From Candidatus Dojkabacteria bacterium (GTDB lineage: Bacteria > Patescibacteriota > Dojkabacteria > J137), in contig JAUZRK010000002.1 in assembly GCA_030950485.1 (NCBI GenBank), positions 111 through 64,110 of the forward strand: a stretch of DNA of 64,000 bases. Direction: 5' to 3'. The notes under the pieces are model-generated. The model searched no databases, was not told where the DNA came from, and was given only the letters and a program-made list of their open reading frames with translations. Both the position numbers and the translations under genes were made by a program. Below are positions 6,876 through 57,568 of this stretch, piece after piece; position 1 is the stretch's first letter, and every line of letters begins with the position of its first letter.

Positions 6876-7101
6876 AAAATATATTTAACAATTAAGAATT
6901 AGCAAATAATAATTAGAATAACTAAATAAAATCTATTTTTAATTAATTAATCTAATTAACCTATACAAGATAATACTCTATAAACTATAAACTTTACAAA
7001 GGTATTATATATTAAGTGTAAGATTCTTGTAATGATTATAAAATCAGTCTAAAAGAAAATATGACTCTTTAATGTTAAAATCTTAGTGATTAATTATCAA
7101 T

Positions 7102-8430: not shown

Positions 8431-8820
8431 ATGTCAGCGGATTTCGAACAACCAGATGACAATAGCGAAGAATATAGACCTCAAGCTGAAATAACTGCAG
8501 ATAAAGAAGCCTTGTTAGAGAGGGCTAAGATTATAGCGGAGAGAGTTACAGAGTTCGGGGAATACGCTATGAGCTTGCTTGAATCTGCAGAAGACTCATT
8601 CGATGAAGGAGACACAACAAATTTCTTACCTACTATTACAACAGCACTACAAATATTTACTAAGATAAGACCTTTAGTTGATATAGCAACTAGGATTGTT
8701 AAATTAGATGATGAGATTTCATTGGAAGAATTACAAACTATGAGTAGCTTTGAAGACCACATTAGTCAATTAGAATTTGATAGTGGGTTAGATGATAAAG
8801 AGAGAGATATTGAGTTTTAG
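8431..8820 (+). CDS. Hypothetical acidic protein
   Basis: 129-aa ORF, D/E-rich, no recognisable motif. Confidence 0.5.
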   Translation: MSADFEQPDDNSEEYRPQAEITADKEALLERAKIIAERVTEFGEYAMSLLESAEDSFDEGDTTNFLPTITTALQIFTKIRPLVDIATRIVKLDDEISLEELQTMSSFEDHISQLEFDSGLDDKERDIEF

Positions 8821-8833
8821 TAAAATGGATTCT

Positions 8834-9823: not shown

Positions 9824-10042
9824 ATACTATTAAGTTAAGTATGCTAAATTGTAAACATGAACGCAACTATAATTCGGCGTTTTACCTATATTATGTATTG
9901 AATAGTTATATATTATGCTATGACCATGAATCTGATGCCATAATTAAGGGACATATTGTGGTAGCTGGTATCATCTTACGTTTATTGACTATGGTATTTA
10001 TGAACCAGGGCTAAAAGATAGAGTTAATGATATAATTTATCT

Positions 10043-17193: not shown

Positions 17194-18081
17194 ATGATAG
17201 ATGAACTTATAAAAACAGGAGAAACTGATGAACCAGATGATTTAGATGAGAGGGGGAATATCGCTGAACTAGAGTCAATTAACCAAACTAGAATACAGTT
17301 GGGCCACTTTAAAAATGCTGCCAGAAGGTATATGTATAAAACTATCGAAGTAATTGAAAAAGGAGATTCTTTTAATAGTTTTTTAGCTACGTTATTTAGT
17401 CCTATTAGTATTCAAGGATTCTATAACTTACAGGCTACGATAGATCTTGCTTTGAATGATTTAAATATAGAGGAAATTGTTCCTGGTGTAATTTCTATAA
17501 ATTTTACAGTACCTATGAAAGAACTTGCAGCAATTAGTGTAATCCCAACGGTAGCAGCAAGTGCTATTAAAAAGGTTGTTCGTGGCGCTCTTGGTGATAG
17601 GCTTATAAGTATTACCAATAAATCAGATTGGAGAACAAATAATAGTACTTTTGAAGTTAAGATTAATTTAGAACAAGAATCTTAATCAGGTAAATCCAAT
17701 AAAATCTCTAGTTCGAACAAGGAAACTTTCGAGTATATTCAAGAAAAATTTCAAAAATGCTCTGTAAGAGGAGATATTATAGTTTATTATACTGGAGAAT
17801 CATTAGAACAAGCTGATTCTATCTTTCCGGTAATAACACTACAGATTTATAATACAGATTCAAAGTCATGGAGACCTGAATTTAAAGAGTATGTAATGTT
17901 TAAACCAACAGATTCTAATGGAAATGGTCCTGTACATGTTCTATCTAGAAAACATTTTGAATCTGAAGTTAGTAAATTTATTTTTGGATCAGCCAATCAA
18001 GTATTTGATTCTGTTTGCATGAGAAGAAAAGATAATGTATCTCAAGCTCCAGTTCTAATATTCGAAGAGATAGAAATGTAG
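17194..18081 (+). pseudogene. Hypothetical protein gene with one in-frame TAA (17683-17685); the same frame stays open to 18081
   Basis: ORF 17194-17685 (163 aa) is followed directly, in the same frame, by 132 codons of open frame with no in-frame ATG until 17896. Confidence 0.45.
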
Positions 18082-28704: not shown

Positions 28705-29270
28705 TTACTAATGTTATATCTAAAACACCCCACTTCATGATCATTAACTATTCCAGTAGCTTGCATGAATGAATAAATTATTGTTGATCCAACAAACTTA
28801 AAGCCTCTTTTTTTCATATCTTTTGAAATTAAATCTGATTCTATACTTGTAGCTGGAACTTCCTTTATAGATTTTCGTTTATTAACTATTCTTTTTTGAT
28901 TAGGCAAAAATGAATAGAGATAATTATAGAAACTTCCAAACTCTTGCTGAACTTCAATAAATTTTATCGCATTTGTTCTTACAGAATATATTTTTAATCT
29001 ATTTCTAATAATTTCAGAATTCTCTCTCTGCTCTTCTAAAAATTTATCAGATACTTTAGATAATTTTTTATAATCAAAATTTAGAAATGAGTTTCTATAA
29101 CCTTCACATTTTTTCAAAATAGTATCCCAGCTTAAACCAGCTTGGGCACCTTCGAGTCTCAAGAACTCGAAAAATATTGCATCATCTGTTACTTGAACAC
29201 CCCATTCATCATCATGATATTTAACATAGTATTCTTTATCCAAAGGTACCCAATTACATCTATTTTTCAT
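28701..29270 (-). CDS. tag: DNA-3-methyladenine glycosylase I
   Basis: RCNWVPLDKEYYVKYHDDEWGV...EFLRLEGAQAGLSWDTILKK matches the Tag signature (CGWV...YHDNEWGVP...LEGQQAGLSW). Confidence 0.85.
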   Translation of the reverse strand: MKNRCNWVPLDKEYYVKYHDDEWGVQVTDDAIFFEFLRLEGAQAGLSWDTILKKCEGYRNSFLNFDYKKLSKVSDKFLEEQRENSEIIRNRLKIYSVRTNAIKFIEVQQEFGSFYNYLYSFLPNQKRIVNKRKSIKEVPATSIESDLISKDMKKRGFKFVGSTIIYSFMQATGIVNDHEVGCFRYNISN

Positions 29271-30972
29271 TTATATATCTTAATATTGCCCTAATTATTT
29301 CACTCTTTTTAAAAGGCTTAGTTACGACTTCATTAAAGCCAGAAGCTATAGCTTTATCCTTTTCACCTTTACTAGCATGAGCTGTGACTGCAATAACGGG
29401 TAGCTTTTCTGTAGATAGGATCAATTCTGTTCTAATAAATTTAATAACAGAATAACCATCTAACCTAGGCATCTGTATATCCATTAGTATTATATCGAAA
29501 GTATTAGATTTTAATTTATCTATAGCTTCGTATCCATCACTTGCGGTAATTACATTAGCCATTTCATTTAGCAGAATTCTTGATGCCACCATTTTATTTA
29601 CTTCATTATCTTCTACAATAAGAACTTTGACATCTTTTAAAGACCCTGCTTCTATCGGATACTCATCCGCTATTTCAGATTGATTATTTGAATTTAAAAA
29701 TCGAAGTGTAAATATAAAACTACTACCCTCACCAAGTTTACTTTTAAGTATAATTTTTCCACCCCAAGTTTCTACTAATTTTTTTACAATCGATAATCCT
29801 AATCCTAATCCTGGACCTCCATATTCTCTTGTAATGCTGCTATCTGCTTGCTTGAACTGTTCGAATATTTGTTCCTGATGTTCTTCTGAAATTCCAATCC
29901 CAGTGTCTGTAATATTAAAATATATTTCAGAAAAATATTTGTTTTTTTGAATTAATTGTACTTCAATTTTTATAAAACCCTCTTTTGTGAATTTTACTGA
30001 ATTACTTATTAAGTTATAAAGTATTTGTTTAAGCCTAGTAGGGTCACCCAAAAGCAACATATCAATCCTTTCATCTACATTTACAAGTAAATCAATATTA
30101 CTCTTCTGAATTATATGAAGATAACTACTTGAAATTGTATCTATTAGATCTCTTATATTGAAAGGGATTTGCTCAAAGTCTATTACTCCACTTTCTGCCT
30201 TAGAAAGATCTAAAAAGTCATTTACTAATATTAATAAGTTATTAGAAGACTGTCTTAAAGTATTTATATATTTTACTTGCTTACTTTTCATTAACTTATT
30301 TGTCATTTCATTCGCGTTCGGTAACTCTTTTTCAACAGATTTTCTTTCTTCAACTTCTTTAGATAAAAAATCTGTTAGTTGTTTTGAATCTTCAATAGTC
30401 CTAATAAATTGAAGAGCATAGAATCTTAAAAATCCTATTACTACCGCTGAGTATAAGTTTACAGTAACTAACCATGAAAAAAGATTAAGATGTTCTGACT
30501 CTAAGTAACTATCTTCAAAAAGAAGAATACTAGTTATATTCGTTACTATAATAATAAGTATTAAAACTAGATAGATTATCCTACTTCTAACAAGAAGAAC
30601 TGAAAATGCTATAGCTGTAGATATTCCGATTAAAAAGATAATACTTAATCCATTGAAATATGCTTCTACAAAGGCTGCAATGAGAATTGAAATAGGAGCA
30701 AGAATTCCACCTGATTCTAGTGTATCTTCAGAAGTTATAGTCCAACCTATGAAATTAATAAGACATAAAAACAGCGTAATAAAAGGATAATTTATGGGAG
30801 CAAACCCTTCTATGTAACCTATTGTATATAGAAAGAATGCAAGCAAATTTATTAGACTAAAGAAAAGTAATACACTTTTAGTTAATTTCTCTGCGTTTTG
30901 AACTTGAGCGTCATTAGATTTAGATGAAGTTAGTCTAGTCCATAATTTTAGGGGTCCTGTATAAAATTTCAT
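29260..30972 (-). CDS. Hybrid sensor histidine kinase / response regulator (multi-TM sensor, HisKA, HATPase_c, C-terminal receiver)
   Basis: N-terminal TM helices, a H-box region, HATPase motifs (DTGIGI, GGPGLGLGLSI), and a receiver domain (VLIVEDNEVN...DIILMDIQMPRLDGY). Overlaps tag by 11 nt. Confidence 0.85.
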   Translation of the reverse strand: MKFYTGPLKLWTRLTSSKSNDAQVQNAEKLTKSVLLFFSLINLLAFFLYTIGYIEGFAPINYPFITLFLCLINFIGWTITSEDTLESGGILAPISILIAAFVEAYFNGLSIIFLIGISTAIAFSVLLVRSRIIYLVLILIIIVTNITSILLFEDSYLESEHLNLFSWLVTVNLYSAVVIGFLRFYALQFIRTIEDSKQLTDFLSKEVEERKSVEKELPNANEMTNKLMKSKQVKYINTLRQSSNNLLILVNDFLDLSKAESGVIDFEQIPFNIRDLIDTISSSYLHIIQKSNIDLLVNVDERIDMLLLGDPTRLKQILYNLISNSVKFTKEGFIKIEVQLIQKNKYFSEIYFNITDTGIGISEEHQEQIFEQFKQADSSITREYGGPGLGLGLSIVKKLVETWGGKIILKSKLGEGSSFIFTLRFLNSNNQSEIADEYPIEAGSLKDVKVLIVEDNEVNKMVASRILLNEMANVITASDGYEAIDKLKSNTFDIILMDIQMPRLDGYSVIKFIRTELILSTEKLPVIAVTAHASKGEKDKAIASGFNEVVTKPFKKSEIIRAILRYINEK

Positions 30973-31026: not shown

Positions 31027-33501
31027 CTATTTTGTAATATCAAATTTACCGTTTTTGAATACTACTTTTAGTTGATCTCCTTTAACAATTCTATTCTCTA
31101 GAAGCATTTGAGATAGAAGATTTTCAATTTCTCTTTGGACAACTCTTTTAATTGGCCTAGCACCAAATTTAGGATCAAAACCAATCCTTGCAAGTTCTGC
31201 TATAGCTGCTTTGTCAAACGTGGCATCAATTCCTTGTTCCGCTAAATTCTTCTTAGTTTCATTTAATACTAGCTCAACAATCTTAATTATTCCCTCGAGA
31301 TTCAATGCTTTAAACAATATTATTTCATCCAGTCTATTTATAAATTCTGGCCTAAATTTCTTTAGAAGTTCTCCCATTATTTTCTCCTTTAACTCATCCC
31401 ATTTTGGCAATATATCTTTAGCCTTTTTCATTTTTATTATACTGTCTCTATTTGTCGTTGGGTTCAGAGCGTCAAGCATTTTACCCATTTCATTTGCTCC
31501 AAGAGTTGTTAGAATCAAATCTGAACCGATATTGCTTGTAGCAATGATTACAGTATTCTTAAAGTCAACAGTTCGTCCCTTACCATCAGTTAATTTACCA
31601 TCGTCTAATACTTGAAGTAGTATATTGAAAACATCAGGATGTGCTTTTTCGATCTCATCCAAAAGTATTACGCTATATGGTTTTCTTCTGATTTTTTCTG
31701 TAAGTTGTCCTCCTTCTTCATAACCAACGTAACCAGGAGGTGATCCAATCAATCTAGTCACTGCAAATTTCTCCATATACTCGCTCATGTCTAACCTAAT
31801 AATTGCATCTTCATCTCCAAACATAAATTCTGCTAATGTTTTTGCTAGCTCAGTTTTTCCAACGCCTGTAGGACCTAAGAATATAAAACTTGCTATTGGT
31901 CTATTAGGATTTTTAAGTCCTGTTCTTGATCTTTTAATTGAGTTAGCAACAAGTGTCACTGCTTCATCCTGTCCTATAACTCTTTTATGAAGCTCATTTT
32001 CAAGATTTAGTAATATATCTTTCTCTTCTTGGTTCAGTTCAGTAATTGGTATACCAGTCATATTTGAAATGACTTGATGTATATCTGAGACTTTAACTTC
32101 GGCAGTTCCGGTTCCTCTTTCTCTTAACCAATCTTCTTCTAATGGCTTAATATCCTCTTTAATTTTTTCTATCTGAACTTTAACTTCAGCAGCTTCTTTT
32201 AGCTGATTTCCTCTTGTAAGCGAGTCTCTTTCTCTTTCTAATTTATCTACTTGAGATTTTAACTCTCTTATCTCACTTGGTTCATTAGAATAATGAATTC
32301 TAACTCTACTAGATGCCTCGTCAATAATATCAATAGCTTTATCTGGTAGAAATCTATTCTTTATATATCTATCTGATAATTTTGCGGCTGACTCTAAAGC
32401 TTTGTCTGTAATTTTTAGTTTATGATGGGCTTCATATCGATCTTTTACTCCTTTCAATATTCTAATAGTTTGTTCTACAGTAGGTTCTTCAACATAAACA
32501 GTTTGAAAACGCCTTTCAAGTGCTGCATCTTTTTCGATATATTTTTGATATTCATTTAAAGTGGTTGCGCCAATAACTTGTAATTCTCCTCTTGCAAGAG
32601 CAGGTTTAATTATATTGGAAAAATCTAATTCACCTTCTTTTGCTCCAGAGCCTACAATTGTATGAAGTTCATCAATAAAAAGAACTATGTCTCTTTCAAC
32701 TTTACCTAATTCATCAATTAACTTCTTTGCTCTTTCTTCAAATTCTCCTCTGAATTTTGAACCTGCTACGAGTCCAGTAAGGTCTAAAGCTTTTAGTTTC
32801 TTACCTCGTAATACGTCAGGAACAGAACCATTTACTATCCTATGTGCTAATCCCTCCGCAATTGCAGTTTTACCAACTCCAGGCTCACCAATTAGTACAG
32901 GATTATTTTTCTTTCTTCTTGCTAAAATCTCGATAACTCTGTTTATCTCTTTATCTCTACCTATAACGGGGTCAATTTTATTTTCTCTTGCAAGATCTGT
33001 AAGGTCTTTTGTAAATTCATCTAAAGTTGGTGTCTCTACTCCATTTACTGATTTACCTTCTTTATCTCCTTCACCAACAACTTTTACAACTGCTTGTCTT
33101 GCACCCTCATGAGTAATTGCATATTTCTTTAGCAGTTGAGCTGCTAAACCTTCTCTTTCAAGAATTAATCCCAGGAATAGATGCTCTGTACCTATATAGT
33201 TATGATTTAGATCTAGTGCTTCTTGATAAGCTAGCTGAATTACTTGTCTAGCTCTTGGGCTGAAAGTAGGTTGCCCTCCAAAGTAAGATCCTTCCGATAG
33301 CTGGTTGTTTATTTGTTTTTCTAATTCTTCAATCTTAATTCCAAGCTCTTTAAATACTCTACTCATTACAACCTTGTCTTGTGTAAGTGAATATAATAAG
33401 TGTTCAGTGTCTACGGCTCGTTGTTTTTTATTAACTGCTACTTCAATAGCTTTAGATATTGCTTCATTGGTTCTGTTAGAAAATAGCTCTTGAATATTCA
33501 T
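31027..33501 (-). CDS. clpC: Clp/Hsp100 ATPase, ClpC-like (two AAA+ modules, short middle domain)
   Basis: Tandem Clp_N repeats ([10 protein letters not shown]), Walker [16 protein letters not shown] and [17 protein letters not shown], and a short coiled-coil between the AAA modules. Confidence 0.88.
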
Positions 33502-33529: not shown

Positions 33530-33556
33530 TTAGCAAACAAGCGGAGTGTGTGCTAA
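33530..33556 (-). promoter_or_regulatory. CIRCE-like inverted repeat (putative HrcA operator) 29 nt upstream of clpC
   Basis: TTAGCAAAC-N9-GTGTGCTAA versus CIRCE consensus TTAGCACTC-N9-GAGTGCTAA. Arms are 8/9 complementary with an exact 9-nt spacer. Confidence 0.55.
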
Positions 33557-33854: not shown

Positions 33855-36800
33855 ATGGATAATCGAGTCGAAATAAAGATAAATAAAACTTCCAGACCAC
33901 CGAAAATAATATTGATAGTATTTGGGTTTCTATTCTTGCTGATATTTTCTAGTATCTATTCACAACTACGTAATAACGGTATAAATCCTTTTGGACAATT
34001 TAATGATGTATTTGCACAGTTTGTTGGGAGACCAGCTCCTAATGTGGGTGAGCTATTAGCAAATTTACAGACAGGTGACTCGCTCGAGGAAAGTCTAGAT
34101 AGATGCGAGATAATAGATCCTAATAGAAAGGACGCTAGTGGGAACCCTCAAGTCATGTCGGTCAAAGACTACAACCAGTCTAATCCTATTGCTGTTGAAA
34201 GCATGGCGGGGTTAAATCTAGGTGATAAAGGTTTTTCTGAAGAATATTATGAATACATGTTTCAAATGGGTATGAGTTACAATCTTTCTGTGTTCGTTGA
34301 TCCAGGTTCTGCTAGTAGTGCAGCTGAATATGTTAAGACTGCTAATGAAAATGAAGTAGTTCCGATAGTTAGAATTTGCTATGTGGGAAATTGTAATTTT
34401 AAATCTCCGGGTCAAGTTGTAAGTTTTTTTGAACAAGTATCTGTTTTATCAGGACCAGGCAATGACTTTATCGCTATTGTAGGACCAAATGAACCTGGAA
34501 CTGGAACTCCTTCTGAAATGTCTGGATTTATTGGTTCAGAAAATTACGATAATATGATAAATTTTACTTTAGAGGCTGCGAAGAGTTTACAAAGGCTGAG
34601 GGTTATTAATGGAGGTAATATGTATTTATCTCCAGCAGCTTTCAATTTAACTAATGCTCAAGCAAACGATGCTGCGGAATATCTAAATCATCCTAGTTCA
34701 AGTCAATTTCCTAAATTATTTGATTATATGATGGGGAATACTTATGCTCTTGGTTATCCGCCAGCTCAAGATCCAGAGCTTGGAGAAATTGCGAAAGCAT
34801 ACGACTGGTATAGAAATGGTGCTGATGGTGTAACTGGACTTGGTGATTGGTCTGAAGAAAATAACATGCCTGTAATAATTACTGAATTTGGTATTTTAAA
34901 AAATGGTATCTCTCCAATTGTACAAACGGCAGAAGCTAAACAAGCTTTTGAAGAATTTTGTAATGATCCAATGGTAGAGGGCGTACTTTTCTTCAGGCCA
35001 TTACCAGGTGTCGGCTCACAGCAAGAAGAACATCAGTTATTTCCTGGCGATTTAAATGCATCAATTCAAGGAATTATTGATATTATCGGTGATTGTGAGA
35101 AAAACTCAGGAAATAGAGATTATGCATGGCAAGCTTGTAATTTGGATTCATGTCTTTATGAACAGACTTATGATGATAGATCTGTTGCATCTACTTGTGG
35201 AATAGAATATGAACGAGAAGAGATTTCAGAATCAAATGGACCAGCTTTATTAATTAATTGTAGTGGTGGATTGTGTACTACAGGAAAGGTTGATACTTTA
35301 GAAATTAAAGCTCCAATAAAGCAGTTTGGTTCAAACGCTTCTGTTGGTACTGAAAATCTCCCCTATATTCCTGCTTGCGTACAAGCAATTTCAACTATTT
35401 ATGGAGCGCAAGGTGAATATGATTCATATGATCCATTTAACCAATTTGCAGGTGAGATTACTTACGGGAGCTCAACTAACCCAAGTAAATATCCAATGCC
35501 TTGGTTAGGTAACGCTATAAACTGCTCTGCTGCACTTTTAGCCTTAGATTTGAAAGTTACAGATTACGTAACGCCTGGTTATGAAATTAACTTCAATCCA
35601 GGAAGCTCAGCAATACAATCTTTATATGAACAGTATTCTGAGGAATATCTAATTCAAGATCATGTAGATCCAAATCATGAAATGTGGCCATTAAATTATT
35701 TTGAAGATACAAAAGGTAAACTTTTAGATGAAAGAGCATTGTGTTTAGATGGAGATTGTTTTGATAAAGAATCAGATACATGGGCTATAAAGCAATTGAG
35801 AGAATATCTTCCATCACAAACAAGTAATACTTACGTTAGAGTTGATCAGTGCGAAAAAGAAACAATGCCTGATTATATGACAAACGAAGGTGCTAAAGTA
35901 ATGAGATATAGAGATGAACCTGCTAACTACGTAATTGGACCTGAGGTAGTTTTGGGGGAGAATGATAAGGTATGGGAAGGGACAGAAAATAGGGTTTGTT
36001 TAGACTTTAGTACTAGAAATATTGATGAGAATTCTTTAATTTTAACTGAAGATCCTGAAGAAGACGAATCAGTTTGTATTAACTTATATTATGTTTATCC
36101 AGATAGTCCAGAGATTTATATAAGAGATCCAGGTACTGAAAAAGAAGCTGATTGTAGTTTAATAGAGGCTGGACTAATAAGATGTACAAATGGCGAGATA
36201 GCAGATGTCGAGGCGTTTAATAGAGGAGATTGTCAGGTTCAAGCACCTTATCAAGCTTGTTATGGATTAGCTCCAGGCTCAAAGCATGAAATATATAGAA
36301 GAATACCTGATGGTACTGCTAGTTTTGCATCTGTACCAGAGATAGAAATTCCTGGTATGTATGACGCTCTCTATTCTCAATATATGAGATTAAGAACTGA
36401 ATTAGCAAGAACTGGTCAACAGATTATATTTAGAGAGAATATTGGAATGAAACTCGAAGTTTCAACAAAAATTCGAGACATGAATAGAAAATATGACTTG
36501 ACCCCATATTATTATGACCAGGTTGTAACTGATAATAACGGTGAAGCGCAGTGCAGCGTTCCAAAACTTATAGGCAATAAATATTATCTAGGTAAATCAA
36601 ATCCTGTTTATACAACAAATCAATACTTCGATTGGTTAGGTTACCTAGATATTTTACAAGAGTTTAATGTTGTATATATAGGTTCTCCTCTACCTATGTT
36701 TGAAATTAAAGGCAATCCGTTTTACTTAGGTTTATCTGAGACGATTGAAGAAGGTGTTTCGGAAGAAAGGTTACAAGAATCAAGGCTATTATACGAAAAT

Positions 36801-39059
36801 GAGTTCTTTCTTTATAGTGGTGCAGCTAATCAATTGATTAGTTTTCCTTTAATGACTTGTGATGAACTTCTTGCTTCAAAATATGATGCGGGTGCTGATA
36901 GAAGATCTAATCCTGATTTAGACTATACATGTTTGACATTCTGGGATGATCCTAGATTTAAGGAAAAAGATGACCTTGGAAATTTTTTATGTGAACAAGG
37001 ATATGTAATACCAGGACTTTGCGATGATGCATCTTACTGTCCTTCAGACTATGAACCAGTTGACCCTGCTTTTGGAACTGGAGACTACATTTGTCCAACA
37101 GATCTAGCATACTGTCTTCAGGGCCCTTATGGAAGTTATAGTCACGCTACGAATTCTTTAAATGCTTATGATGTAGCTGGAAATGTATTTATAGCACCAT
37201 TTGATGGAGAGGTAATAAAAGTTCAAGAGAAATTTCCTTATTGTGACGAAGGAGGTGCTGCAGGAGGTGCTATTTGGTATAGCGGAAATGTTAATGGTCA
37301 GACTGTTACTTTGTTTGTTCTTCACGTAAATACATTTACAGACGCTGAAAATAATACTAGTATCGATCCAAGTAGCTTATTGAGAAAATTTAAATCTGGC
37401 GAAACAATAGCTAAGATGTCAAAAATTGGAGATAGAGATGTTACAAATACTGATTGTATAGGTTCGCCTATACATATACATGTAGAACTTGCTAATGGTC
37501 CTGGAGATACTAATGCTGCTGGAGATATAACTTCTCTGTTTTTAGACACTTTCGGTTGTAAGATAACTTCAAATTCATCAAGTTCATGTACTAATAGAAC
37601 TGAAAATACTTATTCTGGTGGAGGATCTAATGAGAGCCAGGGAGGGGATTCAGAGCCTGAATCATTTATTAATACAGATATGAATTTATTTCCAGTAAGT
37701 CGTGAAAGACAAATTTTAGACTGTAGAGAACCTGAATCAACTATCGCTGTTCCTTTATCAAGTCTTCCATCTCCTACACCTCCTTACTTTCAAGAAGGTG
37801 CAACACCATTAGATAATACAAGTAATTTTAAATTAACACCTGAGGCAAGTAACGCATTGATCACTATGCTAACTGAAATGGAAGATAAAGATCCAGAGGC
37901 CTACTCTACTTGCGGGTTTAATTGGGGATATAGAAGTGCAGTTGTACAAGCTAGTTTCTCTGACGAGTGTACAGTAGCTACCGCATGTGCTTGTCATAGC
38001 GAACATCAATTAGGTACAACAGTAGACTTTAGACCAGCTAGTGGAGCCTCAGTAAATAGCTTTGGTTCAACTGGTTGTTACGACTGGTTACAATCTAATG
38101 CAGCTACTTATGGGTTTGTTCAGTCATATACTCAAGGAAATCCAGATTATATTGCAGAAGTTTGGCATTGGAGATGGCTACTAGGAGATACTGCTAATGA
38201 ATTCTTATCACAAAAAAATCAATCTGATGGTCAACCTTATTTAAGAGTTTATTTAGAAAACGAGTTAGGAATCGAAAGTTTTGAGACATTCGATTCTGAT
38301 GATAATGTTTATGCTCAACTTTGTAGCGCCACAGATCCTTGGGATGACGATCTTAATTCAAGTAGTTTAAGTTGTAGTATTGATGGAACAGATAGTTCAG
38401 ATGCGCTAAATCCAGAGAGAGCTAGAGCTGCAATCGAATCTAGGGTAAGAGCATATAACTTAGATACTAATATTCTAACTGGAGAAGGAGACAATCGATC
38501 ATTCGCGTGGATTGCTCTTTCAGGAATACCTGGAGGAGAAAATTTGACTGAAAGTCTAAGCCTTAGATTATCTCAAATTGAATTCTATGGAAGTGAAGAA
38601 AATTATCAAAGGGTTTTAGGATATAGAGAGGAAGTAACAAGACACTTCTTTAGTGAAGTAAATAGAGTTGGAATAAATCCAAGACTTGCTTATACACTTT
38701 GGATTGAAGAAACAGGTTTTAGTGCAGTAGGAAGTGTATCATTAGGTTGTAGACCTGGTGCTTTAAGTAGTATCCCAAGGATAGACGTGTCATCTATTGA
38801 GAATGTTTTAGTTGGTCAAGTTAAAGCGCACCTTACAGAGCAAATAGAATGTGTTGGCCAATTTATTAATTCTACTAATAATTTTACTGAGTTTATGTGC
38901 ACATATTCTGGAGAGCCGGCTATTGAAGGAACTCAGAGTAAGGCTGTAGAATCAGGAGGTATAACAGTTTATACAAGAGAATGTAATACAGAGAATTTTA
39001 CAACTAATCCTAATTTCCCAGGAAATGTATGTAAATATTATGATTATGGAGTAATCTAG
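33855..39059 (+). CDS. Giant (1734 aa) membrane-anchored multidomain hydrolase: GH-A-clan-like glycosidase region, M23 peptidase, M15 (VanY-type D,D-carboxypeptidase) peptidase, C-terminal Cys-rich region
   Basis: TM at aa 14-36. NEP (aa ~213) and ITEFG (aa ~345) resemble clan GH-A catalytic motifs. M23-like YSHATNSLNAYDVAG...LHVN...GSPIHIHVEL (aa ~1095-1210). M15 motifs SEHQLGTTVDF and AEVWHWRW (aa ~1381-1441). Confidence 0.85.
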   Translation: MDNRVEIKINKTSRPPKIILIVFGFLFLLIFSSIYSQLRNNGINPFGQFNDVFAQFVGRPAPNVGELLANLQTGDSLEESLDRCEIIDPNRKDASGNPQVMSVKDYNQSNPIAVESMAGLNLGDKGFSEEYYEYMFQMGMSYNLSVFVDPGSASSAAEYVKTANENEVVPIVRICYVGNCNFKSPGQVVSFFEQVSVLSGPGNDFIAIVGPNEPGTGTPSEMSGFIGSENYDNMINFTLEAAKSLQRLRVINGGNMYLSPAAFNLTNAQANDAAEYLNHPSSSQFPKLFDYMMGNTYALGYPPAQDPELGEIAKAYDWYRNGADGVTGLGDWSEENNMPVIITEFGILKNGISPIVQTAEAKQAFEEFCNDPMVEGVLFFRPLPGVGSQQEEHQLFPGDLNASIQGIIDIIGDCEKNSGNRDYAWQACNLDSCLYEQTYDDRSVASTCGIEYEREEISESNGPALLINCSGGLCTTGKVDTLEIKAPIKQFGSNASVGTENLPYIPACVQAISTIYGAQGEYDSYDPFNQFAGEITYGSSTNPSKYPMPWLGNAINCSAALLALDLKVTDYVTPGYEINFNPGSSAIQSLYEQYSEEYLIQDHVDPNHEMWPLNYFEDTKGKLLDERALCLDGDCFDKESDTWAIKQLREYLPSQTSNTYVRVDQCEKETMPDYMTNEGAKVMRYRDEPANYVIGPEVVLGENDKVWEGTENRVCLDFSTRNIDENSLILTEDPEEDESVCINLYYVYPDSPEIYIRDPGTEKEADCSLIEAGLIRCTNGEIADVEAFNRGDCQVQAPYQACYGLAPGSKHEIYRRIPDGTASFASVPEIEIPGMYDALYSQYMRLRTELARTGQQIIFRENIGMKLEVSTKIRDMNRKYDLTPYYYDQVVTDNNGEAQCSVPKLIGNKYYLGKSNPVYTTNQYFDWLGYLDILQEFNVVYIGSPLPMFEIKGNPFYLGLSETIEEGVSEERLQESRLLYENEFFLYSGAANQLISFPLMTCDELLASKYDAGADRRSNPDLDYTCLTFWDDPRFKEKDDLGNFLCEQGYVIPGLCDDASYCPSDYEPVDPAFGTGDYICPTDLAYCLQGPYGSYSHATNSLNAYDVAGNVFIAPFDGEVIKVQEKFPYCDEGGAAGGAIWYSGNVNGQTVTLFVLHVNTFTDAENNTSIDPSSLLRKFKSGETIAKMSKIGDRDVTNTDCIGSPIHIHVELANGPGDTNAAGDITSLFLDTFGCKITSNSSSSCTNRTENTYSGGGSNESQGGDSEPESFINTDMNLFPVSRERQILDCREPESTIAVPLSSLPSPTPPYFQEGATPLDNTSNFKLTPEASNALITMLTEMEDKDPEAYSTCGFNWGYRSAVVQASFSDECTVATACACHSEHQLGTTVDFRPASGASVNSFGSTGCYDWLQSNAATYGFVQSYTQGNPDYIAEVWHWRWLLGDTANEFLSQKNQSDGQPYLRVYLENELGIESFETFDSDDNVYAQLCSATDPWDDDLNSSSLSCSIDGTDSSDALNPERARAAIESRVRAYNLDTNILTGEGDNRSFAWIALSGIPGGENLTESLSLRLSQIEFYGSEENYQRVLGYREEVTRHFFSEVNRVGINPRLAYTLWIEETGFSAVGSVSLGCRPGALSSIPRIDVSSIENVLVGQVKAHLTEQIECVGQFINSTNNFTEFMCTYSGEPAIEGTQSKAVESGGITVYTRECNTENFTTNPNFPGNVCKYYDYGVI

Positions 39060-39078: not shown

Positions 39079-39546
39079 ATGAAAAAATTAATAGAAAAAA
39101 TAAAAGGTTTTAATAATGCTATTGGAATATTAGTGGGTGTTATTATATTGCTTATTTTAATTAATGCTATTTTGGGAGGCTCTCAGAATAAAGACGAAAC
39201 TGTTTCGAATATTAACTCAACTGAATATTTATCTGTTGGTGAATCTGAAGGAAGAGAAATTGAAAGTGGAGTTACTGCAAACGAAGAGAGCTTCTTACCT
39301 ATTGAATCATTCAGTCAAGATGAAGATTTACTTTCTGCTTTGCCAGAAATAAACGGTTACTTTGATGCTGATTTTTTACCTCTTGAAGAAAATGCTGAGC
39401 CTAAAATAATAGTTAGACTTAAAAATGAAGACAGCAGAAGTGAATTTGACAAATGGGTGTCAGATTTTTCTTATTCAAATGTTGAATTTATATTTATTCA
39501 ACCTGAAGAAACTTTCAAACATGGAGTATATAAAGTACCTAACTAG
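39079..39546 (+). CDS. Membrane-anchored hypothetical protein just downstream of the giant hydrolase
   Basis: 155 aa; N-terminal TM (AIGILVGVIILLILINAILGG), acidic ectodomain. Confidence 0.5.
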   Translation: MKKLIEKIKGFNNAIGILVGVIILLILINAILGGSQNKDETVSNINSTEYLSVGESEGREIESGVTANEESFLPIESFSQDEDLLSALPEINGYFDADFLPLEENAEPKIIVRLKNEDSRSEFDKWVSDFSYSNVEFIFIQPEETFKHGVYKVPN

Positions 39547-44426: not shown

Positions 44427-44744
44427 ATGATAGGTATTGATATTCAGGATCTTGAAGAATTTAAGAACAGTTTTAGCAATGAAATTCAGATAAACAAAAT
44501 TTTGACAGCTAGAGAACTCTCTATTCATAAGACTTCTGAAAGTAGATGCGGTGTGTTTAGTGTAAAAGAATGCCTTGTAAAAATTGGAATAATAATTCCA
44601 GGTGAGTGGCTAAAAGTAGAAGTTTTAAAAGATGAAAATGGTAAGCCATTTATCACATCAAATTTAATTAAAAATATAAGCAATATTGAATTTAGTATTT
44701 CCCATTCAAAGGAAACCTGTGTTGCTGTTGCAATAAAATTATGA
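44427..44744 (+). CDS. acpS: Holo-[acyl-carrier-protein] synthase (4'-phosphopantetheinyl transferase)
   Basis: MIGIDIQDLEEF...FSVKECLVKIG...FSISHSKETCVAVAI; typical AcpS length and motifs. Overlaps the next gene by 4 nt. Confidence 0.8.
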   Translation: MIGIDIQDLEEFKNSFSNEIQINKILTARELSIHKTSESRCGVFSVKECLVKIGIIIPGEWLKVEVLKDENGKPFITSNLIKNISNIEFSISHSKETCVAVAIKL

Positions 44745-47290
44745 GTAACTTTATAGAATTTATAGATAAAATAGCTTCTGAGAATAACGATAAGTTAGCT
44801 ATGCAGATTAGAAGGCAAGTTGTAATGGAGAAGACAACTTACTCAGACATTAAATCTAATGTTTATAAATTACTAAGTTTCTATAATAAAAATAACATAG
44901 AATTCGGAGATAAAATTTTAATCTGGGGACTAAACTGTCCTGAATACTCTACTTTATTATTGTCTTGTTTTACTTTCGGAAGAGTTTCAGTTCCGGTCGA
45001 CTTTAAAACTACAGTAGAAACAGTAGAAAAAATTATAGATCAAGTGCAACCAAAAATTGCGTTTGTATCTAAATATCTTAATGCTGACTTTATCTATAAC
45101 AGAGTTGAGAAAGTTTACTTTATAGAAGATATATTAGATCTGATTGCAGATTTTGATGAATCAAATGAAATAAAAGATGAATATAAAGATGAAGACAATC
45201 TTATACAAATAGTATTTACTTCAGGTTCAACGGGTACTCCAAAGGGAGTTATGATGTCGCAAAAAAATATACTGAGTAATCTAGATATGATAGATAACTC
45301 AATTCCTAAATTGAAAGAATATAAAACTATTTCAATCCTTCCTCTTAGTCATGTTTATGAGCAGATAGTAGGAATGCTGATGATTTTAAAGAAAGGTGCT
45401 GAAGTTTTATATTTACCTCAAATTAATAGTTTTAGATTGCTAGAAGCAATTGGGGAATATAATCCAACACATTTATTATTTGTCCCCCAGCTGTATTCTG
45501 TTTTTCTAGATAAAATATTTCTAAAAGCAAAAACGGAAGGTACTTATTCTAAATTAGAAAAAGGGTTAAAGTTTGCACCTTATTTACCAAGATTTGTAAG
45601 GAAATTAATATTCAAGAAGATACATAAGAGATTCGGTTCAAATTTCAAATTTTTTGGATCAGCCGGAGCACCACTTAACTATAGGGTAGCGAATATTTGG
45701 GAAAATTTTGGTTTCAAGATATTAGAAGGTTACGGAGCAACTGAAATTGTGGCTGCTGCTACTTTCAATAATTTCGAAGACAAAAGACTAGGATCAGTTG
45801 GAAAACCTTTAAAAGGTGTGGAAATTAAATTTGAAGATAAAGAGATACTCGTTAAATCTCCTAGTGTTACTCTTGGCTATTATAAAAATAAGGAAAAAAC
45901 AGATGAGGTCTTTAAAGATGGATGGTATAAGACTGGAGATATTGGTCATTTAGACAAAGATGGTTATTTATATATAGAAGGAAGAGACGCTTTTAAGATA
46001 GTTTTAGGAAATGGTGAAAATATATATGTAGAGGATATTGAGCAAAAAATAAATAAAAGTAATTTGATATTTGACTCTTTTGTTTATGATTATAAAGAGA
46101 ATGATGAAGTAAGAATTGGTTCTTTTATTATTCAAACAGATAGAACCAAAACTTTAAATCTTGAAAAGTTACTCAATGAAATAAACTCTGAACTTGAATC
46201 AAAACAACAAATATCTAAAATCGAAACCTGGCCAGGGGAAGATTTCCCAAGAACTCATACCCTGAGAATTAATAGAAGAGCAATTCTTAAAGCCTTGGAT
46301 ACTGGTGATTCAGTGAGTAAGTTGGAAAGTGGATATGGAGGAGCTAGTAAAGTTTCTAGCCTACTAGATGTAATATCGGCGGCTGCAAAGATGGATCCTA
46401 AGAACATTAATAAAAATGATACATTATTTAAAACTTTAAGATTAGATTCACTAAAGAGAATTGAATTACTAGCTTCAATTGAAGAATATATGGGAGTTAG
46501 AATTGAGGAGGCTAAGGTTTTACCTGAGACTACTGTTCATGAACTAGAAAAAATGGTAAAGGATGGAGATAAGCAAAAAGAACTGGTTTTGGCTAACTGG
46601 CAGTTTAAATTTTTTGGTAGAGTTTTTGGATGGTTCTTTAATAGGTTATTACTCTTTCCACTACATAGATACGCAGGTATAAAAATTGATAATAAAAATA
46701 GTAATATTAATAATATAAAATTAAGCGGAGGCAGAATAATTTTAATAAATCATCCAGGACTTTTAGATCTGGTTGCAATTATGAGGTATCTAAACAGAAG
46801 AGGTGTTAAGAAAATTGCTACATTGATTTATCCTCCAAATCTGTACCCGAAGAAGTTTAGAGCAAGACTTTTTGAAGGCTCTTTAGGTGCATTACCACTC
46901 TTCAGAGATGGTACAGGGACTAATAAAGTTTTACAGATATGCTCTGACCTTTTAGATAATGGATATTATTTGGTAATTGCTCCACAGGGAAAGATGAAAA
47001 CAGTTGGTGGAAATTCAGAACATCCATTTATGCCAGGAGCTGCATATATGTTAAAACTACTTGGAAAGCCTGTAAATATAGTAACTGTTAACGGGTATCA
47101 TGAACTATGGCCAGTACCTGTAGATAAACATTGGGAAGAAGCAAGAATTAGAGAATTAGGTCCTATGAAAAAAGGGAGTGTAACGATCCAAATATCTGAA
47201 GAACTTACTGAGCACATGGACGAGAAAGTCGATTTGGAAAAGATTAATAAAAACTATCAAGAAATAATGTATAACCAAGAAAAAATATGA
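44741..47290 (+). CDS. Tri-domain fusion: acyl-AMP/CoA ligase + acyl carrier (PP-binding) domain + lysophospholipid acyltransferase (PlsC-like)
   Basis: AMP-binding motifs IVFTSGSTGTPKGVM, GYGATE, YKTGDIG. Carrier motif LRLDSLKRIELLASIEEYMG. Acyltransferase HX4D motif INHPGLLD. Confidence 0.8.
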   Translation: MSNFIEFIDKIASENNDKLAMQIRRQVVMEKTTYSDIKSNVYKLLSFYNKNNIEFGDKILIWGLNCPEYSTLLLSCFTFGRVSVPVDFKTTVETVEKIIDQVQPKIAFVSKYLNADFIYNRVEKVYFIEDILDLIADFDESNEIKDEYKDEDNLIQIVFTSGSTGTPKGVMMSQKNILSNLDMIDNSIPKLKEYKTISILPLSHVYEQIVGMLMILKKGAEVLYLPQINSFRLLEAIGEYNPTHLLFVPQLYSVFLDKIFLKAKTEGTYSKLEKGLKFAPYLPRFVRKLIFKKIHKRFGSNFKFFGSAGAPLNYRVANIWENFGFKILEGYGATEIVAAATFNNFEDKRLGSVGKPLKGVEIKFEDKEILVKSPSVTLGYYKNKEKTDEVFKDGWYKTGDIGHLDKDGYLYIEGRDAFKIVLGNGENIYVEDIEQKINKSNLIFDSFVYDYKENDEVRIGSFIIQTDRTKTLNLEKLLNEINSELESKQQISKIETWPGEDFPRTHTLRINRRAILKALDTGDSVSKLESGYGGASKVSSLLDVISAAAKMDPKNINKNDTLFKTLRLDSLKRIELLASIEEYMGVRIEEAKVLPETTVHELEKMVKDGDKQKELVLANWQFKFFGRVFGWFFNRLLLFPLHRYAGIKIDNKNSNINNIKLSGGRIILINHPGLLDLVAIMRYLNRRGVKKIATLIYPPNLYPKKFRARLFEGSLGALPLFRDGTGTNKVLQICSDLLDNGYYLVIAPQGKMKTVGGNSEHPFMPGAAYMLKLLGKPVNIVTVNGYHELWPVPVDKHWEEARIRELGPMKKGSVTIQISEELTEHMDEKVDLEKINKNYQEIMYNQEKI

Positions 47291-50572: not shown

Positions 50573-51448
50573 CTATTCTTCAATTCTATCAACTATTGAT
50601 TCCAGTTTATTTAATCCAGCTTGAATTTCTGGAGTTCCTTTTGATATTCCTGGATGTCTATTTACTTCTAATAAGTATGGTTTATTATCAGGATGTGATA
50701 TTAGAATATCTGGTCTTGCCCATTTTAAATCTAGTGCTTTTACAGACAACTTTGCAATATTTTGAATATGTTCAGGTATCTCTTTAATATCTACAAATAC
50801 TTCTTTTGCTCCTTTTGAAGCATTATTTACATGTTCTCCATCTTTTCCATAACTTTTTTCTGCTGAGAGAATATTTCCTTCTGCAGTTAGAATACCCCAA
50901 TCATACTCGTTTTTAACGAACTGTTGAAACATGAATTTTTTTCTATTCGCTAACCCATCAATAATTTTTTTTAATTCTTTCTTATTATAAGCTACATCTA
51001 TGTCATTTCCTTGAGATCCTTTTAGACTCTTTACTAGAATTGGAAAGTTTAAATGTTTTAAAACAGCTTTAACTGTATAGTTACTTTTAGTACCGCCCAT
51101 AAAATAGGTAGCCGGAATGGGTAGTTTATTTAATGCAAAGCTAACTTGATCAGTTATTTTAGAAGTAGTTTTTTCTACCTTTGTATGTTCAATCCCTACT
51201 GAATCTAGATATAGTGAAATTGCGTATGAAAGATCTCTATTAGACCAATATGAAGTTAACCAAACGAAATCATAATTCCTTATATCCTCACCCTTGCAAA
51301 GTACTCTTATTTCATCATTTTCAAAAATAAATTCAATATTCCGCATTCGACTATTTACAAATTCGTATTCTGCGTTACCTTGAAAATGTTCTAAAATTGT
51401 ACTTAGATTTTGTAAACCAGGTACTATCAGTATTCGTTTCTTGTCCAT
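50573..51448 (-). CDS. ATP-grasp enzyme (RimK / glutathione-synthetase-like)
   Basis: KSLKGSQGNDIDV and C-terminal LLEVNRHPG are typical of RimK-type ATP-grasp ligases. Confidence 0.6.
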   Translation of the reverse strand: MDKKRILIVPGLQNLSTILEHFQGNAEYEFVNSRMRNIEFIFENDEIRVLCKGEDIRNYDFVWLTSYWSNRDLSYAISLYLDSVGIEHTKVEKTTSKITDQVSFALNKLPIPATYFMGGTKSNYTVKAVLKHLNFPILVKSLKGSQGNDIDVAYNKKELKKIIDGLANRKKFMFQQFVKNEYDWGILTAEGNILSAEKSYGKDGEHVNNASKGAKEVFVDIKEIPEHIQNIAKLSVKALDLKWARPDILISHPDNKPYLLEVNRHPGISKGTPEIQAGLNKLESIVDRIEE

Positions 51449-53008: not shown

Positions 53009-55402
53009 TTATTGTCCCCTCTTAATCCTCAATGAATTCATTACAACAGAAACTGAACTAAACGCCATTGCCGCACTTGCAATTACTGGCGATAATAAAC
53101 TTCCAAAAATTGGATAGAATAAACCAGCAGCTATAGGAATAGCTATAACATTGTATCCAAATGCCCAGAATAGATTTTGCTTTATTATAGATAGAGTTTT
53201 ATTAGATAGCTCTATTGTTTCAATAACTTTATCTAAAGTTCCCTTTACTAAGACAACATCTCCAGATTCAATAGCTACATCAGTTCCAGTCCCCATTGCA
53301 ATACCAATATCAGCAGTTGCTAACGCAGGAGCATCGTTAATTCCATCACCTACCATAGCTATAACAAGATCCTCACTAGTCTTTAACTCTTTAATTTTAT
53401 TAGCTTTGTCAGATGGCAGTACTTCAGCAACTACTTCGTCAATTCCTAACTGAGAGGCTATAGCTTCTGCTGTTTTTTGATTATCTCCAGTTAACATTAC
53501 TACTTTAATCCCTAATCTATGAAGTTTTTCAATAGCGTTCTTAGAATCTTCTTTAATAGTATCTGCTAGCGCAAAAAGAGCTACAACTAAATTATCAATG
53601 CTTACAAATATAGTTGTCTTCCCCTCATTTATTAATCTAGCCGCTTCTTCTGAAGTTTTCTTATCAATGTTTATTTTCTTACTATCCATTAATCTTTGAT
53701 TTCCAAGCATTACCTCTAATTTATCAATTTCACCTTCTACACCCATTCCCTCTATGTTATTAAATTTTTCTACTTTTAGACTTACTTCTCCTAATTCATT
53801 TAAAGCGTATTGAGATATCGTGCTTGAAAGAGGATGCTCAGATAAATGCTCAATCGAGTAAGAATAACTTAAAATAGTTTCTCTTTTCTCTTTATCAGAA
53901 ATATAAAAGTCTGTTACCTCTGGTTGACCTTTAGTTAAGGTACCGGTTTTATCGAAAACAATAGTGTCTATCTTATGCGCTAATTCAAGAGCTTTTGCAT
54001 CTTTAATTAAAATTCCATTTCGCGCAGCAATTCCTGTACCTACCATTGCAGCAGTTGGCGTAGCTAGTCCAAGAGCACAAGGACAAGCAATTATTAATAC
54101 AGAAGTTGTTATGTATGTTGCAAGCTGAATTATACTAGTTCCATCTTCAACTAGACCTAGTCTATCTGCTATTAAGCTCCAGAATGTAAATGATATAACT
54201 GCAATTATAATAACAATTGGAACAAAGACGCTTGAGATCTTGTCTGCTAGTTTTTGAATAGGTGCCTCAGTTCCTGAAGCTTCTTCAACCATTTTTATAA
54301 TTTGAGCCAACATTGTTTCATTTCCAACTTTCTTTGCGCTGAATTTAAATGTTGAGGTTTTATTAATTGTAGAACCTATTACTTCATCTCCTTGCGTTTT
54401 AGTTATAGGTAAAGACTCTCCTGTTACCATTGATTCGTCAATCGTAGTTTTTCCATCAATTATTTCTCCATCAACAGGTATTTTTTCTCCAGGCCTAACT
54501 ATTATAATATCGTTTAAAATCACTTCTTCTATTGGTAATTTTATTTCTTCTCCATTTCTAATTACAGTTGCGTGCTTTGCTTGTAACTCTAATAATTTTT
54601 TTATTGCATCATTAGCCTGTCCTTTTGCCCTGGCTTCGAGAAGTCTTCCTAGTAAAATGAATAGTACTATAAATACTGAAGCCTCAAAAAATACATCTAC
54701 ATCGATATTATTAAATACTTTTGGAAAAAAAGTCACTACTGTTGAAAATAACCATGCAGTGAATGTTCCTAAAGCTACCAGCGTATCCATGTTTGTAGCT
54801 TTTACTTTTAAAGCGCTCCAAGCACTTTGGAAAAATTGGCTACCTCCCCAAAATAAAATCGGAGTAGAAAGCAAGAATTGAAATAAAAAGAAATTATTAA
54901 TCATTAAGTTAGTGTTGCCACTATTTATATCAGTATGTCCTAAAGGAGCATGTGACATTTCGACAATACCTGCCATTGAAAGCATCATCCACATCATTAT
55001 GAAAATAAATGGAATTGCTAAAAATGCTACTATTTTTACTTTTCTAACAAGTTTTTGATACTCCTTCTTTTTAAGACTTGCTGCGTGATTATGAGAATTG
55101 TCTTGATTCTTTCCTGAATTATTAGAACTCTCAATTTTTTTAGTATTCATTGGATCCGCAAGAACTGTTTCTCCTTGTTCATTATTGATTAATTTATACG
55201 AGCCTGCCGATTCGACAGCTTTACTTAAATTTTTAAGAATTTCTTCTGAGTTTAATGATTCATTTAATTCAACAGTCATTATTTCTGTTGCGTAATTTAC
55301 TTTTACTGATTCTACTCCTTCTACTTTACTAATCATTTTTTCAATCAGCATCTTACAAGAAGCACAGTGCATTCCGATTATTGGATATGTTTGTTTCATC
55401 AT
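53009..55402 (-). CDS. copA: Copper-translocating P-type ATPase
   Basis: N-terminal HMA domain (GMHCASCK), CPC motif ([12 protein letters not shown]), [15 protein letters not shown]. Confidence 0.9.
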
Positions 55403-55406
55403 TTAT

Positions 55407-55871
55407 TTAACCTAATATAAATCTAAAATATTTAAAGTGATTTTTAACAAAATCAGAATTTCCGATATATTTATCCACACCTAAATATCTGCCGGCCCCA
55501 AAAATTCCTAATTGAATAAAAACTAGTGCGTAGATTATATGATCATCAATAGGACCGTGTTCAGCTGGTAAGGCCGATATATAAAATAGAACCATCATAA
55601 TAACTCCGCAAATGCTCCCAAACCTAGTTAAAACACCTAGTAATAGAGATAGTCCAATTCCTATTTGGCCGTATACAACTAAGAAATCAATAATACTATT
55701 GCCCGCCATTTCACTAAAGAAATCTTTGAATGGTCCTGAAGTTGCGTAGGCTAAGTATCCTTCTGAGCTAAAGTCGTTTAATAATTTATCAATACCCGAA
55801 TATAAAAATATAAATCCAATTGAAATTCTTAAAATGACAATAATTAATGATCGTTTATTAATAGTTCTCAC
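55407..55871 (-). CDS. DoxX-family membrane protein
   Basis: 154 aa, 4 TM, DoxX-like N-terminus (ILRISIGFIFLYSGIDKL). Confidence 0.65.
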   Translation of the reverse strand: MRTINKRSLIIVILRISIGFIFLYSGIDKLLNDFSSEGYLAYATSGPFKDFFSEMAGNSIIDFLVVYGQIGIGLSLLLGVLTRFGSICGVIMMVLFYISALPAEHGPIDDHIIYALVFIQLGIFGAGRYLGVDKYIGNSDFVKNHFKYFRFILG

Positions 55872-55892
55872 TTTTATAAAGTAAAAAATAAA

Positions 55893-57335: not shown

Positions 57336-57357
57336 TTATTACTGTGTAATTATCAAT

Positions 57358-57549
57358 CTAATTAATTAAATCACTTACTATTTGAACATCATTCTCCTCG
57401 ATTCCTTCTAAAACTAGCTCTCCTTTATTATCATCTTTTAATTCTAAGCTAACTACCTTATCTTCAAAGCCATTATCCTCAAGCTCCATTCTGATAAGAG
57501 ATACACAAGCTTGGCAGTGCATTCCATCGATTGTAAAAGTTGTATTCAT
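57358..57549 (-). CDS. copZ: Copper chaperone (HMA domain)
   Basis: 63 aa; GMHCQAC metal-binding motif. Confidence 0.75.
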   Translation of the reverse strand: MNTTFTIDGMHCQACVSLIRMELEDNGFEDKVVSLELKDDNKGELVLEGIEENDVQIVSDLIN

Positions 57550-57568
57550 TCTGAAATTATTAAAATAA

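Follow-up and report, generated by a model that had tools for sequence, protein, structure and literature searches.

The DNA analysed here, a stretch of 64,000 nucleotides referred to as the window, comes from Candidatus Dojkabacteria bacterium (assembly GCA_030950485.1, contig JAUZRK010000002.1, positions 111 to 64,110) and carries on its forward strand a gene for a giant predicted hydrolase of 1734 amino acids. The gene starts with ATG at 33855 and runs uninterrupted for 5.2 kb to 39059, the G+C content is low in the window (28-37%) and in the DNA of this frame (31-36%), and at least 22 homologues of the protein were found at E < 1e-76; it is therefore not a chance open reading frame (ORF). 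The product is predicted to be a single-pass, N-terminally anchored, disulfide-rich extracytoplasmic protein of this lineage within the Candidate Phyla Radiation (CPR/Patescibacteria). Its parts follow each other in the order of a barrel of the type of glycoside hydrolase (GH) clan GH-A, a Cys-rich region of 640 amino acids, a divergent M23 domain, a VanY/LdcB-type LAS domain and a C-terminal domain of 230 amino acids.

33855-39059, forward strand: giant hydrolase gene, 1734 amino acids, from the ORF list and translation; homologues at E 0 to 1e-76
33900-33962, forward strand: N-terminal hydrophobic segment, residues ~16-36, the sole Kyte-Doolittle window above 1.6
34020-35150, forward strand: clan GH-A-type (beta/alpha)8 barrel, candidate retaining glycosidase, residues 56-432
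34488-34496, forward strand: N212-E213-P214, candidate acid/base motif just after strand 4, invariant in alignments A1 and A4
34884-34886, forward strand: E344 of TEFG, candidate nucleophile on strand 7, invariant in alignments A1, A4 and A7
35151-37079, forward strand: central family-specific Cys-rich region, residues 433-1075, 21 Cys
37080-37619, forward strand: divergent M23-like (LytM-type) metallopeptidase domain, residues ~1076-1255, from hhalign and a PDB profile search
37830-38180, forward strand: VanY/LdcB-type LAS (M15B) zinc peptidase domain, residues 1326-1442, from PF02557, with H1384, D1391, E1435 and H1438
38370-39056, forward strand: C-terminal conserved domain, residues 1506-1734, 6 Cys, from alignment A6

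Four basic residues (K8, K11, R14 and K17) stand ahead of or at the start of the hydrophobic segment, and the hydropathy profile together with these residues suggests a signal-anchor with its N-terminus in the cytoplasm. A V-F-A|Q site at residues 52-55 would be a place for cleavage if the segment were a signal peptide instead. The hydrophobic maximum is found at the N-terminus in nearly all orthologues as well. Outside the anchor the protein is strongly acidic. Its 46 Cys make up 2.65% of the residues, as opposed to 0.45% for ten other window ORFs, and orthologues share this high Cys content. The initial annotation had described an N-terminally anchored ORF of 1734 amino acids, which agrees with the single transmembrane (TM)-like segment and the intact frame, and the motifs that it quoted are all present in the order and spacing given: NEP at residues 212-214, TEFG at 343-346, SH at 1096-1097, LHVN at 1156-1159, HIH at 1207-1209, SEHQLG at 1382 and EVWHW at 1435. 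It had also set apart about 300 Cys-rich residues without a recognisable family. This part had to be redrawn, as Cys are distributed through all extracytoplasmic domains and the residues without a family match number about 870 (433-1075 and 1506-1734).

The public record of the gene differs from the reading in the window. The corresponding NCBI protein (P0001, 1656 amino acids), named 'D-alanyl-D-alanine carboxypeptidase family protein', is identical to the window protein for 1654 amino acids and then ends in 'PS', so that the last 80 amino acids of the C-terminal domain are missing (residues 1654-1734, window 38814-39059). A later start codon was considered as the cause of the shorter length and rejected, since the first 1654 amino acids are shared and the difference lies at the C-terminus. 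The public record appears to contain a frameshift or truncation; the 1734-residue reading is the intact one, as alignment pairs its tail with the orthologues' C-terminal domain.

The barrel (residues 56-432) has the (beta/alpha)8 fold that characterises clan GH-A. In the predicted model, with strands counted from DSSP, NEP corresponds to model residues 157-159, directly after the strand 150-153, and E344 is model residue 289, inside the strand 285-292. The model thus places the two candidate glutamates as in the clan, with the acid/base residue after strand 4 and the nucleophile on strand 7, and bears out the initial proposal that NEP and ITEFG are spaced as in clan GH-A. Both NEP and E344 are invariant or nearly so in 49 family members. 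The closest structures are cellulases, mannanases, lichenases, xylanases and PslG; the barrel is, however, only 8-15% identical to any solved member of the clan (GH5 cellulases/mannanases, GH26, GH10, GH39/PslG, GH53, GH128). The GH5/GH-A match that had been expected was not obtained: no GH family of Pfam matched significantly, the best being PF11790 (Glyco_hydro_cc) at E 0.14 and 12.2 bits against a cut-off of 21. The profile of barrel alignment A4 found no glycosidase in PDB at E <= 10, and a word-indexed homologue search seeded with the barrel alignment returned just 3 proteins. Unlike known clan members, this barrel is fused to peptidoglycan peptidases and shows no match at the level of hidden Markov models (HMMs) to PDB or Pfam GH families; it would be an unclassified GH-A family.

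The M23-like domain is recognised by profile comparison rather than by Pfam. PF01551 gave no match at E <= 1 on the whole protein and none at E <= 10 on residues 1051-1290 alone, and its gathering score was not reached. In hhalign, an alignment of 12 sequences of this divergent subtype (A2) matched the canonical, Pfam-recognised M23 domains of orthologues (A3) at 97.5% and E 5.7e-12, and a PDB profile search with the divergent subtype found 8s3m (E 3.3e-6), 9gy1 (E 1.6e-4) and LytM (E 1.4e-3). Positions invariant in A2 are a Cys, a Pro, a Gly, H1097, D1106, H1157, H1207, H1209 and a second Cys, and D1106, H1157, H1207 and H1209 line up with the corresponding canonical residues. Of the M23 assignment made initially, the homology and the conserved H/D/HxH residues stand, while the expected PF01551 match is absent. 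The domain shares with LytM/lysostaphin-type enzymes (2b0p, 4lxc, 8s3m) the Asp, the mid-domain His and the HxH, the homology being at profile level, but differs from them in a C-P...C-x-Q-G-P lead-in, extra Cys, H-x8-D instead of HxxxD and its escape from PF01551. The canonical HxxxD spacing is absent, H1097, the sole invariant upstream His, standing 8 residues before D1106 (5-14 in relatives). The subtype also alternates with canonical M23 at the same position in orthologues, where Pfam recognises the canonical form in 13 of 22 and 19 of 27 members.

The second peptidase domain (residues 1326-1442) is matched by PF02557 with 54.1 bits (cut-off 25), E 1.8e-14, over model positions 3-130 of 132. 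Its closest structure is LdcB (4ox3, E 1.6e-8), with further matches to 4mph and 4ox5, and the motifs S1382-E-H1384-QLGTTV-D1391 and E1435-VW-H1438 are aligned with the same motifs in 4ox3, 4mph and 4jid. The VanY/M15 signature named at the outset (SEHQLGTTVD with EVWHWRW) is in this way confirmed. SxHxxGxxxD and ExxH are common to this domain and the M15B enzymes B. subtilis YodJ/LdcB (4ox3) and S. pneumoniae LdcB (4ox5). LdcB enzymes are membrane-anchored and extracytoplasmic. The present domain differs in being one module of a 1734-residue protein and in scoring far below the NCBIfam equivalogs; it may be an LD-carboxypeptidase, a DD-carboxypeptidase or an endopeptidase like phage M15 lysins. 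Pfam searches of the whole protein and of five sub-segments reported VanY only, besides the sub-threshold PF11790. PHROG yielded nothing of use for any segment, and the matches in NCBIfam were limited to LdcB/VanY models and stayed below threshold. The three catalytic regions first proposed (GH-A-like, M23 and M15) are therefore all recovered, with their proposed catalytic residues conserved, though Pfam sees M15 alone; as judged from alignments, none of the three predicted enzyme domains has lost its putative catalytic residues.

Two further regions are conserved within the family. The central region contains many invariant polar residues and has no Pfam, PHROG or PDB profile match. The C-terminal domain has the invariants W-x-E-E, H, E-Q, Y-S-G-E and four Cys in A6; it has no PDB, Pfam or PHROG match, and a homologue search seeded with its alignment gave only 2 weak outside matches. 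A likeness of W-x-E-E-[ST] to lysozymes or transglycosylases had been considered and was dropped, as no search supported it.

When 1.84 billion representative proteins were searched exhaustively by HMM for the central region, 78 family proteins were identified, 73 of them 990-2450 amino acids long and the other 5 short (99-692 amino acids). All named members are from Dojkabacteria or from generic Patescibacteria metagenome-assembled genomes (MAGs), and the family so far looks confined to the Dojkabacteria lineage. The searched literature contains no description of it. The architecture had been called rare, which is true globally (78 among 1.84 billion) but not within this lineage, where it is the rule. 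In a local HMM census of 76 large members, the central region was found in 75, the GH-A barrel in 70, the divergent M23 subtype (M23b) in 46, the canonical M23 subtype (M23a) in 35 and the C-terminal domain in 18; some members possess both M23 subtypes. In a Pfam census of 49 members, Peptidase M23 was found in 32, SGNH/GDSL esterase in 16, NAGPA phosphodiester glycosidase in 8, VanY in 8, M15_4 in 3, and GH25 and Amidase_2 in 1 each. Module order also varies; for example, VanY precedes M23 in P0026 and comes after it in the window protein. Since both order and content differ between orthologues, the family shares a core (TM segment, barrel, Cys-rich region and M23), behind which wall-directed modules are shuffled.

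Some members depart from this plan. Among P0019, P0021, P0030, P0033, P0054, P0070 and P0072, and also P0056-P0074, some have two tandem GH-A-like barrels, and in one subgroup a barrel-like segment is inserted in the central region. This indicates domain duplication and rearrangement within the core. In the complete Dojkabacteria genome KatS3mg085 (AP024679.1; positions 4738-9890 of the fetched locus) the orthologue falls into two ORFs, of 993 and 586 amino acids, about 410 nt apart, and no clpC was found upstream; possible explanations are a pseudogene, a gene that is genuinely split and an error of sequencing. A related genome (fetched locus L003 from CAZSKK010000003.1, positions 17600-17940 of the locus) encodes, about 5 kb downstream, a second giant protein of 2182 amino acids with matches to SH3_3, Peptidase_M23, LGFP and Peptidase_C39_2, so that more than one very large M23 protein is encoded in these genomes.

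The giant gene is flanked by the following features.

29260-30972, reverse strand: hybrid histidine kinase with fused receiver (HisKA, HATPase_c, Response_reg), just beyond clpC
31027-33501, reverse strand: clpC, divergently transcribed (Pfam Clp_N, AAA, AAA_2, ClpB_D2-small)
33530-33556, no strand assigned: CIRCE-like inverted repeat
39079-39546, forward strand: small partner ORF, 155 amino acids, with a basic N-terminus, one TM segment and an outside domain of ~100 amino acids
39585-40139, reverse strand: receiver-only response regulator (PF00072, E 4.9e-18)

The order clpC (reverse), giant gene (forward), small ORF (forward), receiver-only response regulator (reverse) and gltX (forward) is common to three fetched loci (L001-L003), and the response regulator is syntenic in these and in many GTDB loci. 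A scan of one genome per GTDB species, limited by the search pattern, found 23 loci, one per genome, titled Dojkabacteria or labelled as generic Patescibacteria or 'Saccharibacteria' MAGs. Among the fetched loci, clpC lies upstream in 23 of 26. Identity between genomes amounts to 61-75% for ClpC, 53-58% for the response regulator and 48-56% for GltX, against 22-41% for the core of the giant protein, which evolves much faster than its syntenic neighbours. The other genes of the window are housekeeping genes (lepA, rmuC, prfA-like, mnmA-like and gltX).

The small partner ORF begins 19 nt after the stop codon of the giant gene, and the two are probably co-transcribed. Of the 21 fetched loci with a complete giant ORF, 18 have an ORF of the same design (131-272 amino acids, basic N-terminus, one TM segment) at -68 to +19 nt after the giant gene, often overlapping its stop codon. 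Its sequence conservation is low (mean identity 19%), and it has no family, PHROG or PDB profile match. The adjacency is conserved and the small protein is a conserved partner of the giant protein; its role as a regulator, inhibitor or assembly factor is conjecture, and the inhibitor or immunity factor suggested initially is possible on the basis of conserved adjacency.

The surroundings are as first described, with clpC and a CIRCE-like operator on one side and the small anchored protein and response regulator on the other. The repeat (TTAGCAAAC-N9-GTGTGCTAA) has 3 mismatches to TTAGCACTC-N9-GAGTGCTAA, with 0.04 such sites expected by chance. It was considered as a regulator of the hydrolase and rejected, since it lies upstream of clpC at 29 bp from the start, whereas the start of the hydrolase is about 300 bp away; it likely belongs to clpC. 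A heat-shock operator at clpC, and not at groEL or dnaK, would be unusual. The response regulator had been called an orphan, which it may not be, given the hybrid histidine kinase gene beyond clpC. Rfam and tRNA scans found no RNA element near the giant gene, and consensus scans were at background for both promoters (34 sites, 28.3 expected) and terminators (1 site, 2.8 expected).

Taken as a whole, the domains suggest that the giant protein is a tethered, multi-bond cell-wall-degrading enzyme, a reading based on sequence to which we give an even chance. Such an enzyme would remain tethered to the membrane of the producer and would cut wall polymers at several bond types with one polypeptide. 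A retaining two-glutamate mechanism, with E213 as acid/base and E344 as nucleophile, would let the barrel hydrolyse a beta-glycan, which could be a wall-associated polysaccharide or possibly the glycan strand of peptidoglycan. The M23 domain would cleave peptide cross-links or stems, and the LAS domain would trim or cleave stem peptides. The target may be the wall material of other cells (host or debris), attacked for attachment, access or scavenging; this is the weakest step, held tentatively and at slightly under an even chance. A foreign wall is favoured because accessory wall-directed modules are swapped between orthologues, because the giant protein diverges fast relative to its syntenic neighbours, because the barrel is cellulase-like, and because esterase and phosphodiester-glycosidase modules occur in relatives. 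WS6/Dojkabacteria have been proposed to be obligately symbiotic or parasitic (PMC5113843).

Several points weigh against this reading. The gene is near-universal at a fixed locus among housekeeping genes, there is one locus per genome in the pattern-limited scan, and the membrane anchor and the likeness to anchored M23 and LdcB enzymes of ordinary bacteria are equally what a role in the producer's own wall would give. H1097 would have to serve as the first zinc ligand of the M23 domain with a spacing of 8 instead of the canonical 3. The VanY domain is placed at the level of the LAS superfamily only, because its NCBIfam scores are far below the equivalog cut-offs (32.5 against 275 bits for NF041194, 30.2 against 400 for NF000473 and 19.5 against 425 for NF000472). 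Clan GH-A is not known to include a member that cleaves peptidoglycan. Finally, about half of the protein (the ~870 residues of the central and C-terminal regions) has no family match, and the predicted model of the central region is of low confidence (predicted local distance difference test, pLDDT, 59).

An alternative of lower but still appreciable probability is that the protein is an all-in-one housekeeping autolysin that remodels the wall of the Dojkabacteria cell itself. In that case the M23 domain would act as an endopeptidase that makes space or splits the septum, the stem peptides trimmed by the LdcB-like domain and the wall-linked glycan processed by the barrel would be those of the cell itself, and activity would be under the control of the small partner and of the response regulator nearby; reduced genomes would have fused several wall enzymes into one polypeptide. 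The single locus in each scanned genome, fixed in the block lepA, rmuC, clpC, giant gene, response regulator and gltX, fits this explanation, as do the presence of the gene across the fetched genomes, an anchor that puts the enzyme at the producer's own wall and an M23-type domain in almost every family member. Among solved structures the VanY domain is closest to LdcB enzymes, which mature the producer's own peptidoglycan. CPR genomes commonly retain peptidoglycan synthesis (PMC13293708), which is counted in its favour as well. A substrate as constant as the lineage's own conserved wall is, however, hard to reconcile with a core only 22-41% identical where ClpC is ~70% identical. The shuffling of accessory modules between orthologues is likewise unexpected, SGNH and NAGPA modules typically serve to attack modifications of the wall, and the 1000 residues of GH-A barrel and Cys-rich region are without counterpart in known housekeeping autolysins.

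It is unlikely that the core and the small partner together form a class-wide device of Dojkabacteria for breaching host walls or for feeding, in which the barrel would be a new GH-A family acting on peptidoglycan glycan or host wall polysaccharide and the central region a new fold, either spanning the envelope of the producer itself or having a further activity.

It is improbable that the protein is mainly a polysaccharide-degrading or adhesive surface protein, its barrel and central region binding or digesting environmental or biofilm beta-glycans for carbon and its peptidase-like domains serving as wall-binding or accessory modules. The cellulases, mannanases, lichenases, xylanases and PslG nearest to the barrel are what such a function would lead one to expect, and conservation within the family is highest in the barrel and central region. 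Against this, both peptidase domains keep their predicted metal-binding and catalytic residues, intact and invariant, which speaks for activity; the accessory modules that could be identified in the 49 relatives are all wall-directed; and Pfam detected no recognised carbohydrate-binding module in the giant protein or in these relatives. The chance of a chimeric ORF produced by mis-assembly or by fusion of adjacent genes is negligible, for although the NCBI copy differs from residue 1655 and is truncated and one complete genome has the orthologue split (993 and 586 amino acids), the order TM segment, barrel, central region and M23 is repeated in more than 70 independently assembled proteins, the gene recurs in 23 GTDB genomes with the same neighbours, and the C-terminus in the window aligns end to end with orthologues.

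Multi-domain wall hydrolases are well known, for example staphylococcal Atl (amidase and glucosaminidase) and modular phage lysins. The giant protein resembles these in carrying several predicted wall-cleaving activities on one secreted or anchored polypeptide and in the shuffling of modules between relatives. It differs in its N-terminal TM anchor in place of wall-binding repeats, in its 46 Cys, in a lineage-specific core of 1000 amino acids (barrel and Cys-rich region) without counterpart, and in that one CPR class inherits it at a fixed position on the chromosome. Giant proteins implicated in cell-wall degradation have been described in Omnitrophota (bioRxiv 10.1101/2023.11.21.568195). They are similar in concept, wall-degrading domains being carried there by surface proteins of very large size in uncultured bacteria that have small cells and are possibly predatory or symbiotic, but they belong to a different phylum and are far larger, and no homology is claimed. 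While multi-catalytic wall hydrolases as such are already known, new features here are the lineage-specific core of 1000 amino acids, the fusion of an unclassified GH-A-like barrel to peptidoglycan peptidases, a divergent M23 subtype missed by Pfam, two conserved regions without detectable relatives and a conserved two-gene unit.

Dojkabacteria have no cultured member, and their lifestyle has been deduced only from the genes absent in their genomes. The giant gene offers a concrete handle, as it encodes a large surface enzyme at a fixed locus across the fetched Dojkabacteria-like genomes, with identifiable modules that all point to cell walls. Action on other cells would make it a tool for host contact or scavenging that defines the lineage, as well as a source of new lytic enzymes; action on the cell's own wall would make it an example of a minimal genome packing wall remodelling into one polypeptide. 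Either way, current annotation misses the GH-A-like barrel, the divergent M23 subtype and ~870 amino acids of conserved sequence.

Other genes of the window were noted in passing. At 7102-8004 (forward strand) an ORF of 300 amino acids contains the C-terminal half of UvrB only (Helicase_C, UvrB, UVR), and no N-terminal half was seen directly upstream on the same strand. At 44427-47290 (forward strand) a small 4'-phosphopantetheinyl transferase gene directly precedes that of an 849-residue protein in which AMP-binding, PP-binding (carrier) and acyltransferase domains are combined; this Aas-like enzyme of lipid recycling or acylation, having a carrier domain of its own, is unusual in a reduced genome. 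A copper/metal-handling cluster at 53009-58996 (reverse strand) encodes a P-type ATPase with HMA (797 amino acids), a three-domain multicopper oxidase (480 amino acids) and a membrane protein of the DsbD_2 type with an HMA domain fused to it (475 amino acids); this DsbD-like thiol-disulfide protein may be relevant to a cell that exports Cys-rich proteins. Finally, an ATP-grasp protein of the RimK / D-Ala-D-Ala-ligase type (50573-51448, reverse strand, 291 amino acids) adjoins a NUDIX hydrolase and may be relevant to wall-peptide or peptide-tail ligation.

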